DNA from: an uncultured Gemmatimonadaceae bacterium
GTDB taxonomy: Bacteria > Gemmatimonadota > Gemmatimonadetes > Gemmatimonadales > Gemmatimonadaceae
NCBI GenBank assembly: GCA_963790305.1
Contig: CAWBOC010000010.1
Coordinates: 96,001-160,000 of the forward strand
Length of the DNA: 64,000 bases
Reading direction: 5' to 3'
Part shown: positions 27,001 to 30,000 of the stretch, piece after piece
How positions within the stretch are numbered: the first letter of the stretch is position 1
Layout: each line of letters starts with the position of its first letter
Made by a program: the position numbers

Positions 27001-30000
27001 TTCTACCCGGCGTGGACCTACAACGGCCAGGTTCCCGGTCCGACCATTCGGTGCACCGAGGGTGACCGCGTACGCATCCACTTTACGAATAACGGCAAGC
27101 ACATCCACTCGATCCACTTTCACGGAATTCATCCCGCGAACATGGATGGCGCATTCGAGATGATTCCGCCGGGTGAGCGGTACGTCTACGAGTTCGACGC
27201 CGAGCCGTTCGGGCTGCACCTGTATCACTGCCACACCGTCCCGATCAAGCGCCACATCCACAAGGGATTGTACGGCGCATTCATCATCGATCCGAAAGAG
27301 GGCCGCCCAGCGGCGAACGAGCTCGTGATGGTGATGAACGGGTTCGACACGAACTTCGACAACGAGAACGAAGTTTACGCCGTGAACACGGTGGCCTTTC
27401 ACTATCAGAAGCATCCGATTCCGATCAAGCTCGGCGAGCTGACACGGGTGTATCTCATCAACATTACCGAGTTCGATCTGCTCAACTCGTTGCACATTCA
27501 CGGCAACATGTTCCGGTTGTACCGCACCGGCACGAGCCTGACGAACTCCGAATTGACCGACATCGTGACGCTCGGGCAGGGTGAGCGCTCGGTGCTGGAG
27601 TTCACGTACAAGTTCCCGGGCCAGTTCATGTTTCACGCGCATCAGAGCGAGTTCGCCGAGCTCGGGTGGAGCGGGATCTTCCGCGTGGAGGAGCCCGCCC
27701 GTGTCTAGCGCCTCTAGCGCGTCTAGCGCCTCTAGCGCCTCTAGCACTCGTACGAACCGCCTCCTCCTCGGGCTCGGGCCGCTCGCGCTGCTCGCGCTGC
27801 TCATCTTCGCATTCCTCAAGGTCGGGCCGCTGGGCGTCTTCCGCGCCGCGTTTCCCCCGGTCGAGGAGCTGACGATCGAGCGCGTGACGCTGCCGAAGGC
27901 GGGAGAGATGGTCGTGCACGTCGTCAACGGCGGTCCCGAAGCGGTCACGGTGGCCCAGGTGCTCGTCGATGACGCGTCGTGGCTCCATTACATCGATGGT
28001 GAGCGCACCATTAGCCGGCTCGAGCGTCGCGCGATTCGCATCCCGTACCCGTGGGTCGAGGGCGAGCCGCACGTCGTGCGTCTCATCACCAGTACCGGTC
28101 TCACCTTCGATACGACGATCGAGGTCGCGACGACAACCCCGACTGCCAATGCGCGATACCTCACCACGTTTGCGCTCCTTGGCGTGTACGTCGGTGTCAT
28201 CCCGGTGTTTCTGGGACTCCTCTGGTTTCCCTTTCTGCGGACGGCGAGCCGCCGCTGGCTCGACTTCTTCCTGTCACTCACCGTTGGCCTGCTGATCTTT
28301 CTCGGGGTCGACGCGTTCGCTGAGGCGCTCGAGACTTCCGCGCGCGTCGCGGGCGCCTTTCAGGGCCTCGGCGTCGTCTTGTTAGGCGTGCTCGGAACGC
28401 CCCTCGCGCTCGCCGCGATCGGCCACCGCAATCGCGGGACAGGGAAGGGAACTTCCGCGTTTCACGTCTCGCTGTTGATCGCCATCGGCATTGGCTTGCA
28501 CAACCTCGGTGAGGGTCTCGCGATCGGGGCCGCCTACTCCACCGGCGCGATCGCGCTCGGCACCTTCCTGATCATTGGCTTCCTGCTACACAACACGACG
28601 GAAGGGCTCGGGATTCTCGCGCCCATCGCGACCGAGCGGCCGAGTATCGCGCGGCTCGCGATGTTGGGAGCGATCGCGGGAGTGCCGACCGTCCTCGGTG
28701 CCTGGATCGGCGCCTTTACGTACTCGCCGCTGTGGACGACGCTGTTCTTCGCGGTCGGCGCGGGTGCCATCGTGCAGGTCGTGTGGGAGCTGATCAAGCT
28801 GTTCTCCCGTCGTTCCGAAGGCGGCCTCACCGCGCCGTTGAATGTCGCTGGAGTGATGGCGGGGCTGCTGATCATGTACGTCACCGGTCTCCTGGTTCCC
28901 GCATGAGAATCCGTTCGCTCGCGGCCGTGGCGGCATGCGCGCTCGCATCGGTGGTGGACGCGCAGGTGGCAGGGCAGAGCACCGGCCCCCGGCCGCCGGT
29001 CCGCGACAACAGCTTCCTCGTCGAGGAGGCGTACAATCAAGAGGCGCGCGTCGTTCAGCACGTCAGTGTGCTTTCAGTGACGCGCGAGAGTGACGGCTGG
29101 GAGTATGGGTTCACGCAGGAGTGGCCCGCGGGCAGTCAGCGCCACCAGCTGAGCGTCACCGTGCCGATCGTGAATGCGGCGGATGCGACCGGCGTTGGCG
29201 ATGTCGCCCTCAACTACCGGTACCAGCTCGCCTTCGACGACGCGAGCGGCAATGCCGTGGCGCCGCGCGTGAGTCTCGTGCTTCCCACCGGGGACGCCGA
29301 GCAGGGGCGCGGGACGTCGTCGTTAGGTCTTCAGGTGAATCTGCCGGTGAGCTGGGGATGGCACCGTACCTTTGTCACGCACTGGAACGTCGGCGGGGCG
29401 TGGACGCCATCGGCCCGCGCACCGTCGGGGGGAAGAAGTGCCACGCGCGATGTCACGGCGGCCGCCAGCGCGATCTGGCTGGCGAGGCGCGCGGTCAACC
29501 TGATGCTCGAGTTCGCCTGGGCGCGTGAAGAGTTCGCCGTGGGAGCCGATGCACGCGTTGCGGAAGAATCGGCCTGGATCTCGCCGGGCGTGCGTGCCGC
29601 GATCGATTTCCCCAGCGGTCTCCAGATTGTTCCCGGTCTCGCGTTTCCCATCGGCATCGGTCCGAGCGATGGCGAAAAGCGCGTGCTGGTGTACCTCAGC
29701 TTCGAGCACGGCTTCTAGGGGTCAGGAGTCAGGGGTCAGGGATCAGGGGATGTCGGGGGAAGCGGTGCCAGGAGAGCGACGTGTCGTTCCCTCCTGCGAC
29801 CCAACCCCTGCCCCCCCTGATCCCTGACCCCTGACTCCTGACCCCTAGAAACGCCATTCCCGAATCACGAACGCGCCCAGGATGTTCTTGCGCGGCGGGT
29901 CCGCCTGGGCGGCGAGCGTCGGCTCACGGATGAGATACCGAGGTACGTAGCTCATCTCCAGGCGGAGCCCCTTGGGCATCCGGTGCACGAGACGAATACC

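Follow-up and report, generated by a model that had tools for sequence, protein, structure and literature searches.

STRR heptamer repeats have been known between bacterial genes since about 1990. Described tandem heptamers include the STRR of heterocystous cyanobacteria and the TAACTGA repeats of Beggiatoaceae, cyanobacteria and Bacteroidetes (PMC2408588, table 3; PMC4679880), and for the TAACTGA repeats no mechanism of spread was evident according to the cited section (PMC4679880). In Xanthomonas, arrays of the heptamer GGGAATC form 70-75 inverted pairs in convergent orientation close to stop codons, as stated in the cited parts of Rehm et al. (2015, PMC4692102). Origin and function of the STRR, Xanthomonas and Beggiatoaceae heptamers have no accepted account, and the intervening sequences (IVS) of rRNA genes have likewise gone unexplained for decades. 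According to the excerpts cited here, IVS with an S23p/23S_rRNA_IVP ORF interrupt 23S or 16S rRNA genes of Coxiella, Leptospira and CPR bacteria (PMC4990558, PMC11270868); they have a 28-bp terminal stem and have been termed selfish (PMC4990558).

The genome analysed here (4.3 Mb; a soil bacterium, assembly 94% complete, 13 contigs) contains 481 long hairpins detectable with our gapless inverted-repeat finder (score at least 16). On two contigs (1.9 Mb) the finder reported 200 hairpins, compared with four in a third-order Markov shuffle of the same sequence. A period of 7 or 9 fits the arms best in 313 of the 481 hairpins, and 191 are strictly tandem (97 with period 7, 93 with period 9 and one with period 14). 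Median arm length is 27 nt at period 7 and 32 nt at period 9, and the number of units per arm has a median of 3.9 (5-95% range, 2.9-5.4). Whole hairpins have a median span of 92 nt and a median MFE of −65 kcal/mol. Among 304 tandem-armed hairpins the G-rich arm comes first in 295, nine are neutral and none is C-first; consistently, G-rich TRF arrays have their inverted partner to the right 364 times and to the left twice, while C-rich arrays have it to the left 359 times and to the right twice. Solo arrays display no orientation bias relative to genes. The preliminary description of this DNA had reported hundreds of very stable gene-end hairpins whose arms repeat a 7- or 9-nt unit in tandem and whose G-rich arm leads, and all of this was recovered by the independent finder, except that its arm-order count of 344:2 reflects about ten families and is therefore pseudo-replicated. 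Its mirror-image arms are indeed inverted partners, but calling them exact was an overstatement, as 1009 of 15521 stem positions are mismatched. In 42 of 297 pairs the arms differ by at least 1.5 units in copy number, and at only 45 of 248 loci did a locus's own arms outperform every one of 25 foreign arms sampled from its family, which indicates that much of the mirroring is simply the canonical unit order of the family. Array edges are sharp: where the stem ends, identity to the unit drops from 0.88 to 0.38, and outward growth leaving older, decayed outer units was rejected for this reason. Loops of the GGGGTCA family are often related (47 of 57 have a similar loop at another locus), whereas most loops in the three remaining large families have no counterpart (similar loop elsewhere in 4/52, 6/29 and 4/25).

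In this general build the hairpins are close to the arrays of Xanthomonas campestris and X. axonopodis, which, in the cited parts of PMC4692102, also consist of about four tandem heptamers, are enriched in non-coding DNA no more than 50 bp from stop codons, are G-first in convergent pairs, and occupy sites that are kept between species while their lengths vary. With STRR and TAACTGA repeats, as far as these are covered by the cited sources, they share intergenic tandem units, many unrelated unit families and the presence of the same unit in distant phyla; those repeats, however, are mostly described as direct arrays, which in the case of TAACTGA often precede genes; they are not defined by hairpin pairing, and the cited sources report no cargo gene. 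Thus, the class of paired heptamer repeats is already known (PMC4692102, PMC2408588, PMC4679880), contrary to the initial claim of a so far undescribed class, and what is new is its link to small genes, described below. According to the cited parts of Rehm et al. (PMC4692102), there is one unit per genome (GGGAATC in Xanthomonas, GGGGA(C/T)T in Nostoc), read as a G-quadruplex former, and no small-gene link is drawn there. By contrast, about ten families coexist here; half have units of 9-10 nt, most lack G-runs, and the paired share is much higher than in those parts of the Xanthomonas and Nostoc account. Binding of heptamers by cold-shock proteins, an idea put forward in the cited section of PMC4679880, does not fit the 9-10-nt units. 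If the hairpins were G-quadruplex-forming regulatory repeats with a functional G-rich arm, as proposed for the Xanthomonas and Nostoc heptamers, the roughly four units per arm would match the four-unit preference given in the cited parts of Rehm et al. (PMC4692102), and the GGGGTCA family does carry runs of three to four G. It is nevertheless the only family with the four or more runs of at least three G from which a quadruplex can form; CGAGGTNNT lacks such runs, and most families, including GGAATGC, TAGAGGCGC, CGAGGTCGT and GACGTCA/GAATTCA, have GG at most or no G-run. Moreover, the perfect complement with which about three quarters of period-7 arrays are paired would out-compete a quadruplex, and some cassettes in other genomes are C-first (see below). 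We thus consider a quadruplex function very unlikely.

Within the window, i.e. the whole 64-kb stretch of DNA analysed, in which no Rfam family reached its gathering score, the following elements were delineated (G-numbers denote genomes used for comparison; unstranded, no strand assigned).

12488..12549, unstranded: short hairpin of GCGCTGGAAAA type, the C-rich array of which enters the 3′ end of the neighbouring minus-strand gene.
13852..13977, unstranded: arrays of AAGGCGC(T/G)A and GCCTCTAGC that pair with each other; at this site they are far longer in G004 and G005.
25013..25102, unstranded: GGAATGC/GGATTGC-armed hairpin in the spacer of divergent genes; at this site the arrays of congeners G004 and G008 enclose an extra small ORF, which is missing from G000.
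27704..27745, plus strand: unpaired C-rich TCTAGCGCC array (nearest 300 nt free of a partner), the first unit of which provides the TAG stop of gene 26671..27708.
29713..29850, unstranded: representative hairpin, G-rich arm 29717-29749 with GGGGTCA/GGAGTCA/GGGATCA units and C-rich arm 29814-29846; the arms surround a further palindromic core.
36725..36810, unstranded: hairpin of the 9-nt unit TAGAGGCGC between two minus-strand genes; the site is occupied by an 11-nt GCGCTGGAAAA-type family in G004 and G008 and by a GGGCCAN family in G001, G002 and G005.
39629..39695, unstranded: short GGAATGC-type hairpin occupying the whole convergent spacer, which in five congeners is filled by related heptamer variants.
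48508..48625, unstranded: GGGGTCA-family hairpin with a conserved GGGGGTGTCAGGG..GGTTCGAGGAGA core in a convergent spacer; the same family occupies the site in G005 and G002.
50892..50980, unstranded: GGATTGC/GGAATGC-armed hairpin.
58871..58942, unstranded: hairpin of the 9-nt unit CGAGGTNNT, present in G004, degenerate in G005 and absent from G002.
60290..60335, unstranded: collapsed remnant of the GGGGTCA family with GGGGATC units, adjoining a canonical terminator; G004 retains a full element of about 190 nt.
60640..60751, unstranded: GACGTCA-type hairpin with AGACGTC/GGGAGTC units.
62949..63025, unstranded: hairpin of the 9-nt unit TAGAGGCGC.

The stem of the representative hairpin (29713-29850) contains both neighbouring stop codons, the TAG of the plus-strand gene 28903..29718 and the stop of the minus-strand gene 29845..34449. 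Its RNAfold energy is −119.5 kcal/mol on the plus strand (z = −13.2 against shuffles) and −120.1 kcal/mol on the minus strand (z = −12.6), with none of 200 shuffles folding as well.

The repeat arms also flank genes. Profile searches of the genome identified six genes of PF05635 ('23S rRNA intervening-sequence protein', a four-helix bundle), with matches of 41-119 bits against a cut-off of 33.8 and TIGR02436 also above its cut-off, and four genes of PF13366 (GxxExxY). Each of the six PF05635 genes has a G-rich array upstream and the complementary array at its stop codon or just beyond it, and the six cassettes use six different units (GGAGTGG, GGGGTCA, GACGTCA, GAGGTCGTC, TAGAGGCGC and GGAATGC). 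Similarly, all four PF13366/TIGR04256 genes adjoin arms of four further families (CACAGAGG, ACGCAGAGG, CCGCAGATGG and GACGCGGAT). In this genome, therefore, small genes and arm families are linked, one gene per family: each of the ten has arms of a different unit family around it or next to it. At least four 7-mers are common to the arms of one of these ten cassettes and to 401 of the 481 hairpins (83%), including 287 of the 304 tandem-armed ones; with the cassette arms read backwards, eight of 481 match. Cassettes and hairpins are situated between predicted protein-coding genes, and no rRNA gene was found in three gene-free gaps searched with Rfam. Some of the six PF05635 genes look truncated, with matches of 71-79 aa. 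The gene-bearing cassette of each unit family had been missed in the preliminary description, and we did not find the gene-arm link stated in the published literature that we searched. We know of no mobilising activity for either the PF05635 or the PF13366 protein family.

These cassettes resemble rRNA IVS in several respects. Both have pairing terminal inverted repeats, of about 28 bp in the IVS covered by the cited excerpts and of the arm lengths given above here, and both may carry a 23S_rRNA_IVP-family ORF in the loop, as is the case for six cassettes and for none of the approximately 400 gene-less hairpins. The same excerpts attribute to IVS the existence of ORF-less copies, sporadic occurrence, suspected horizontal transfer, a selfish character and unexplained movement (PMC4990558, PMC11270868). 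On the other hand, IVS, in those accounts, sit in rRNA genes, in contrast to the location of both cassettes and gene-less copies here; unlike IVS, the present elements number in the hundreds, have arms of tandem 7-10-nt units and in some cassettes carry a GxxExxY gene instead. Finally, IVS are excised by RNase III, a gene for which was not found in this genome or class. Because the ten gene-linked arm sets cover the great majority of the hairpins, we read the latter as probably belonging, without a gene of their own, to about ten families of small IVS-like selfish cassettes with palindromic ends.

In a full cassette, about four tandem units of 7-10 nt form the G-rich arm, which is followed by a leader, a single small gene and a complementary C-rich arm abutting or overlapping the stop codon of the gene. 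The gene encodes either an IVS protein (PF05635/TIGR02436) or a GxxExxY protein of the PD-(D/E)XK fold (PF13366/TIGR04256). The relation of the gene-less hairpins to gene-bearing copies would be one of dependence or descent, like that of MITEs to transposons, and each small protein might recognise the units that make up its own arms. The nearest solved structure to the IVS-protein homologues is Xanthomonas XCC0516 (2GSC, E-value = 3.6e−21, five chains), described as a homopentamer, and the arms here hold 4-5 units. In the cited supplementary table of Rehm et al. (2015, PMC4692102), a GGGAATC array overlaps the start of XCC0516. Co-clustering of proteins with arms, based on short alignments, is only suggestive. 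Gene-less hairpins and cassettes have the arms alone in common, with no interior homology that would attest descent by internal deletion: the interiors of the six four-helix-bundle cassettes gave no BLAST match (E ≤ 1e−3) to any gene-less hairpin, only matches of 11-23 nt with E of 0.06-5, and the conserved cores of gene-less GGGGTCA hairpins are absent from the GGGGTCA cassette. This lack of interior homology, together with the gene-arm association itself, would also be expected if the hairpins came first and the four-helix-bundle and GxxExxY genes were mobile, homing into their loops, so that the link would represent a target preference. PF05635 genes in several different rRNA insertion sites of CPR bacteria, reported in the cited part of PMC11270868, are in line with such homing. 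The six genes, though, are found in six families, two of which are rare with about 6 and 23 hairpins, an outcome with a chance of about 1% under random homing proportional to family size (a rough estimate from family counts), and the paralogues share only 31-44% identity with the first one, which points to old lineages tied to their own arms rather than to one gene hopping between hairpins. Hence, homing appears improbable.

Association of PF05635 with inverted tandem arms extends to other genomes. Of the PF05635 loci inspected in 20 genomes, 17 of 20 are bracketed by such arms above the level of shuffles, and in G091, rich in GGAATGC arrays, a PF05635 gene lies between GGATTGC/GGAATGC arms. 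The 5′ arm of the 17 cassettes has more G than C in 12 cases and more C than G in five. The C-first cassettes weaken an origin of the G-first rule from a process resembling telomere healing or from fold-back replication; the rule would be largely inherited from the ten resident families and no physical necessity. PF05635 is present in all 25 genomes with GGAATGC x3 arrays and in 155 of the 276 others (301 sampled), although the tally includes related genomes that are not independent and the unpublished G199 and G080. Possession of the gene is not sufficient, because G010, G029 and G020, with five, three and four PF05635 copies, respectively, hold one, zero and four hairpins in the 100 kb scanned of each. 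The GGAATGC x3 unit occurs at no fewer than 123 loci in other phyla, and closer to home the GGAATGC count is 83 in this genome and zero in congener G008, being patchy in others. At one site, four different unit families were found across six congeners; empty and collapsed sites exist, and presence or absence varies among congeners at many sites, while spacers without a hairpin can be aligned and are constant in length. The congener sites compared included no clean empty/filled pair, and no target-site duplication was discernible in them. Such comparisons show that the families are patchy across relatives and phyla and that their gain, loss, collapse and replacement at gene ends are fast. The scattering of units over other phyla and the conservation of sites but not of units, both pointed out at the outset, thus hold. 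Loss of the SbcCD nuclease was rejected as a cause of the abundance, as an SbcD-like gene is present in all 31 relatives (including the unpublished G015).

The initial interpretation of the hairpins was that of bidirectional terminators or RNA 3′-end elements. As claimed, they follow stop codons closely: with genes defined by our own crude GC3-based caller, stops lie at a median of 4 nt (n = 318) and starts at a median of 37 nt (n = 202). Of 555 convergent spacers, 96 hold a hairpin of the strict set and 147 hold any hairpin (17-26%, about a fifth, as stated before), against 38-54 of 575 divergent ones. The position flush with stops, the convergent enrichment and the recurrence of sites in sister species fit, as far as genome comparison can tell, some role at RNA 3′ ends. 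They could accordingly be host-selected, U-tract-independent bidirectional terminators or protective 3′-end structures, the tandem build of which eases the formation of long stems. The refilling of the same sites by other families in sister species, the extreme stability of the stems, and the apparent lack of RNase III in the genome and class (TIGR02191 in 0 of 4, PF14622 in 0 of 13 and PF00636 in 0 of 130 class genomes), owing to which long stems would persist in RNA, all speak for such a role. At window position 20188, furthermore, the hairpin of congeners ends just upstream of what we read as a conserved promoter-like TTGCAC-N17-TACGCT. The same explanation would derive the G-first order from a weak pyrimidine-RNA:purine-DNA hybrid formed in the polymerase at stem closure when the purine-rich arm comes first, a putative thermodynamic effect.

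The stems are G+C-rich and thus have the stem-loop trait of intrinsic terminators, but a run of at least four T within 12 nt downstream follows just 10 of 210 co-directional hairpins. Canonical terminators (A-tract, stem, T-tract) coexist with the hairpins, and one adjoins an element at about 60265-60300 of the window. Up to 54 hairpins lie in divergent spacers, and the presence of hairpins at many sites differs between congeners. Sense-strand mismatches have no preference for G.U over A.C (140 versus 145, p = 0.81), and give no signal of RNA-level selection either way. The spacing expected of leaderless promoters after hairpins produces a weak bump at 36-42 nt (24 of 318). Selection for termination leaves the pattern of one small-gene cassette per family unexplained. 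Of the initial interpretation, the gene-end position therefore stands, while the terminator function itself is rather unlikely. If the hairpins are selfish cassette derivatives, they may persist only right after stop codons, since a transcript stem of about 30 bp would be harmless there, and elements so placed may end up shaping RNA 3′ ends as well.

Hundreds of intergenic palindromic repeats, grouped in families with sharp boundaries at gene ends, would also be expected if a RAYT (Y1) transposase moved them as REP/BIME/REPIN elements or if they were MITEs of a classical insertion sequence. Indeed, in the cited sections on REP elements (PMC3116915, PMC2817692), hundreds of extragenic palindromes at gene ends, doublets forming long hairpins and a single-copy gene per family are all features shared with the present elements. 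REPs are 20-40 nt long, however, and are not built as tandem-repeat arms, and the Y1 transposase family to which RAYT belongs (PF01797) has no match here. Profile searches of the genome were equally negative for all seven transposase or reverse-transcriptase families queried: Y1_Tnp, DEDD_Tnp_IS110, DDE_Tnp_1, DDE_3, Transposase_mut, DDE_Tnp_ISL3 and RVT_1 (PF01797, PF01548, PF01609, PF13358, PF00872, PF01610 and PF00078, respectively). A TnpB-type model gave a sub-threshold match only, and none of three rve loci has tandem-unit arms nearby. Mobilisation by such enzymes is accordingly hardly credible.

If the hairpins are gene-less cassettes, hundreds of 'terminator-like' hairpins per genome would have to be annotated as selfish DNA, and the finding would bear on genome stability, because arrays flank a gene lost here, and on the RNA biology of a bacterial class in which RNase III was not found in any of the 130 genomes (PF00636). 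One gene per repeat family would also provide a testable origin for long-unexplained bacterial repeats, rRNA IVS included. In a much broader and rather doubtful generalisation, tandem-repeat hairpins, STRR and other heptamer repeats, and rRNA IVS would constitute one widespread transposase-free selfish class, in which a ring-forming four-helix-bundle or GxxExxY protein reads the units of its own arms, about one per subunit, and thereby drives spread or retention; where RNase III is missing, uncleaved stems would accumulate at gene ends as the main U-tract-free 3′-end structures.

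A gapless inverted-repeat finder, run over the whole genome (4.31 Mb in 13 contigs, 66% G+C, 94% complete), retrieved 481 long hairpins at a score of at least 16; a third-order Markov shuffle of 1.9 Mb yielded 4, compared with 200 in the real sequence of the same contigs. Arms have a period of 7 or 9 in 313 of the 481, and a strict tandem test assigned period 7 to 97 hairpins, period 9 to 93 and period 14 to one. Among the 304 tandem-armed hairpins, the G-rich arm is on the 5' side (G-first) in 295; nine are neutral and no C-first case occurs. Similarly, the inverted partners of TRF arrays lie right and left of G-rich arrays in a ratio of 364:2, and left and right of C-rich ones in a ratio of 359:2. 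Based on gene positions from a crude GC3-based caller (4056 genes, 88% coding), hairpins have a stop codon at a median distance of 4 nt (n=318) and a start codon at 37 nt (n=202). Of 555 convergent spacers, 96-147 contain a hairpin, compared with 38-54 of the 575 divergent ones. Their median MFE is -65 kcal/mol across 92 nt. The numbers, periods, arm orientation, stop-codon distance and stability given in the preliminary description are thus closely matched by independent methods. The stop codon adjoining hairpins is TAG in 122 of 310 cases versus 1075 of 4056 genes genome-wide, and TAGGGGTCA and TAGAGGCGC are among the families whose arms themselves provide the stop codon. The representative hairpin consists of the following features:

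29713-29850, near-perfect palindrome of 138 nt, occupying the entire spacer of two convergent genes
29717-29749 and 29814-29846, TRF arrays of this hairpin

Its stem includes the TAG stop of the plus-strand gene 28903..29718 and the stop of the minus-strand gene 29845..34449, and heptamers GGGGTCA, GGAGTCA, GGGGTCA and GGGATCA make up the outer ~33 nt of each arm. The folding energy is about -120 kcal/mol on both strands (z about -13), and none of 200 shuffles folded equally well.

The arms had been described as exact mirror images, which is overstated, as mismatches occupy 1009 of 15521 stem positions. Copy number differs between arms by at least 1.5 units in 42 of 297 pairs, when 25 foreign arms from within the family were sampled, a locus's own arms outmatched every one of them at only 45 of 248 loci, and in the GGGGTCA family variant units follow an order characteristic of the family. 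Only in this family are the loops family-specific, 47 of 57 having a similar loop elsewhere; in the remaining three big families nearly every loop is unique, such a counterpart existing for just 4 of 52, 6 of 29 and 4 of 25. What loci have in common is the arms, not whole hairpins.

The same arms surround small genes. Six PF05635 matches exceed the cut-off in this genome, and all belong to TIGR02436 ('four helix bundle protein'). Every one is preceded by a G-rich array, the complement of which lies at the stop codon or just past it, and the unit differs from gene to gene:

C7:167306-167847, PF05635 cassette, unit GGAGTGG
C5:70534-71055, PF05635 cassette, unit GGGGTCA
C9:163272-163780, PF05635 cassette, GACGTCA type
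C7:227884-228422, PF05635 cassette, unit GAGGTCGTC
C9:787677-788215, PF05635 cassette, unit TAGAGGCGC
C10:203198-203840, PF05635 cassette, unit GGAATGC

Compared with the first of them, the other paralogues show only 31-44% identity. In addition, a CACAGAGG arm pair surrounds a TIGR04256 GxxExxY/PF13366 gene, and all four PF13366 genes of the genome adjoin arms of four further families. At least four 7-mers are common to the arms of one of the ten cassettes and those of 401 of the 481 hairpins (287 of the 304 tandem-armed ones); with cassette arms read backward as a control, 8 of 481 matched. The association extends beyond this genome. Across 20 other genomes of the phylum, 17 of the 20 PF05635 loci sampled are bracketed by inverted tandem arms, and in one genome rich in GGAATGC arrays (G091) the PF05635 gene is flanked by GGATTGC/GGAATGC arms. 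PF05635 is present in 25 of 25 genomes with GGAATGC arrays versus 155 of 276 others, a tally in which related genomes are not independent and which includes the unpublished G080 and G199. The closest solved structure is that of Xanthomonas XCC0516 (2GSC, five chains), the start of which is overlapped by a GGGAATC array according to a supplementary table (Rehm et al. 2015, PMC4692102). In the literature outside subscription journals, we found no paper that connects PF05635 or GxxExxY genes with arms made of heptamers or tandem repeats.

PF05635 is described as the protein of rRNA intervening sequences (IVSs), selfish and sporadic insertions with a 28-bp terminal stem around an ORF that are excised by RNase III (PMC4990558; PMC11270868). 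The cassettes share the IVS build, a terminal stem around a PF05635 ORF, but differ in lying between protein-coding genes and in having tandem repeats as arms. Because of the shared build, the hairpins are rather likely to be gene-less members of IVS-like cassette families. Such elements would be restricted to places where a long stem is harmless; the small proteins would recognise their own tandem units, and this recognition would drive the spread. Several observations count against this reading: homology between the interiors of cassettes and gene-less hairpins was not found, genomes holding the genes can have few hairpins, and no target duplication is legible in the sites compared. A further one is that the G-first rule, without exception among tandem-armed hairpins here, stands at 12:5 among cassettes of other genomes, which suggests that the resident families have largely passed it on.

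The window was aligned to syntenic contigs of five congeners (G001, G002, G004, G005 and G008), 77-86% identical in coding DNA. Hairpin-free spacers are alignable and constant in length (e.g. 81/81/81/81/83 nt), whereas hairpin-bearing ones are unalignable. The representative site is occupied by GGGGTCA elements in this genome, G004 and G008, which share one core, and in G005, which has another; a GGAATGC element is found there in G001 and a ACGCAGAGG element in G002. Site 20188-20238 has no element here and is occupied in all five congeners, and site 60290-60335 is a collapsed remnant compared with ~190 nt in G004. At 25008-25107, heptamer arrays surround an extra small ORF of ~125 codons in G004 (L010/L011) and G008 (L014); this version is degraded in G005 (L012/L013), and our genome has two arms and no ORF, apparently having lost the gene via recombination between direct arrays. 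Array ends are sharp, with identity to the unit falling from 0.88 to 0.38 at the stem boundary. Hairpin density is a genus trait, with 12.7-22.7 per 100 kb in five genus members versus 0-4 in seven genomes of other genera.

The unit GGAATGC is patchily distributed. GGAATGC x3 (at most one mismatch) occurs 83 times in this genome and never in G008; within the phylum, 25 of 301 genomes carry it, in a tally that includes the unpublished G199 (the backward control was almost always 0). The exact 21-mer was found at at least 123 loci, the hosts among the matches listed being Acidobacteriota, Chloroflexota, Planctomycetota, Verrucomicrobiota, Bacteroidota, Clostridia, Cyanobacteria, Nitrospirota, Streptomyces and others. 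Among the same listed matches, a partner within 200 nt lies to the right at 47 loci (at two also to the left), only to the left at one, and is absent at 75. Viral contigs contain 32 such loci, 29 of them solo arrays, versus 5 for the backward control. The class is not undescribed, contrary to what had been proposed. Earlier reports present arrays of the same kind in Xanthomonas (PMC4692102), as Nostoc STRR heptamers (PMC2408588) and as TAACTGA heptamers (PMC4679880), the last common to distant phyla 'with no mechanism evident'. Xanthomonas campestris has 186 GGGAATC arrays, located near stop codons and usually four units long, of which 70 form convergent inverted pairs; their sites are retained in a sister species (Rehm et al. 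2015, PMC4692102).

RNase III models had no match: TIGR02191 in 4 genomes, PF14622 in 13 and PF00636 in 130 genomes of families f1-f8 of this class. PF00636 does occur in families f10-f12 (18 of 19 genomes) and in the single genome of f9. The absence from this genome and the sampled genomes of the class looks like a class-wide loss. If real, the stems, unlike those of IVSs, would stay uncut and remain on transcripts; the 3'-end role proposed in the preliminary description would then remain viable, though as something that follows from the elements and does not explain their origin. Position near stop codons favours such a role, but its terminator version is weakened. Among 210 co-directional hairpins, only 10 have a run of at least four T directly downstream, and mismatches on sense transcripts in co-directional contexts are of G.U type in 140 cases and of A.C type in 145, so that G.U is not in excess. 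Moreover, canonical terminators coexist with the elements:

~60265-60300, canonical intrinsic terminator (A-tract, stem, T-tract; AAAAGGGCCATCTC..GGGATGGCCCTTTGTTT), kept in G004

It adjoins the collapsed element here and the full element in G004; thus, the genus uses such terminators alongside repeat hairpins. Genome-wide there are 23 C-first long hairpins, most of which either are palindromes of this canonical A-tract/stem/T-tract kind or fall in the CACAGAGG family.

Searches of this genome for Y1_Tnp, IS110, DDE_Tnp_1, DDE_3, Mutator, ISL3 and reverse transcriptase gave no matches, and a TnpB-like match falls under its cut-off. The only classical transposase-type genes detected have no tandem-repeat arms nearby; one of them is at the end of a contig and one seems to be frameshifted:

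C10:228-518, rve-type integrase locus
C12:3315-3605, rve-type integrase locus
C7:5463-5754, rve-type integrase locus

Loss of SbcCD as the cause of hairpin tolerance was ruled out by an SbcD-like gene in 31 of 31 relatives.

Several other sequences were recorded. A promoter-like TTGCCC/TTGCAC - N17 - TACGCT motif (20198-20238), conserved in five congeners, lies 7-9 nt upstream of the ATG of the gene at 20239, a spacing that would fit a leaderless transcript. The 253-nt spacer 26418-26670, upstream of gene 26671, contains a ~90-nt block near-invariant in four congeners (TTGACG..ATTTAGGCTATCCTAAATCTG..GTTACTAATTCTGCCTTTCGGTCCGTCTATTAGGTGG), which may represent a promoter plus leader RNA; Rfam gave no match to the spacer at gathering score. 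A solo G-rich tract, GGGTGGGGTGGGGTGGTGGGG (58086-58109), is located downstream of a stop codon and conserved in three congeners, and a short hairpin after it overlaps the end of the convergent gene. Rfam searches of three gene-free gaps of this genome found no rRNA genes. A 10-kb stretch (C5:383008-393271, L255), of only 56% G+C and without a gene by the GC3-based caller, contains the RNase P RNA:

L255 7256-7640, minus strand, RNase P RNA (292.6 bits)
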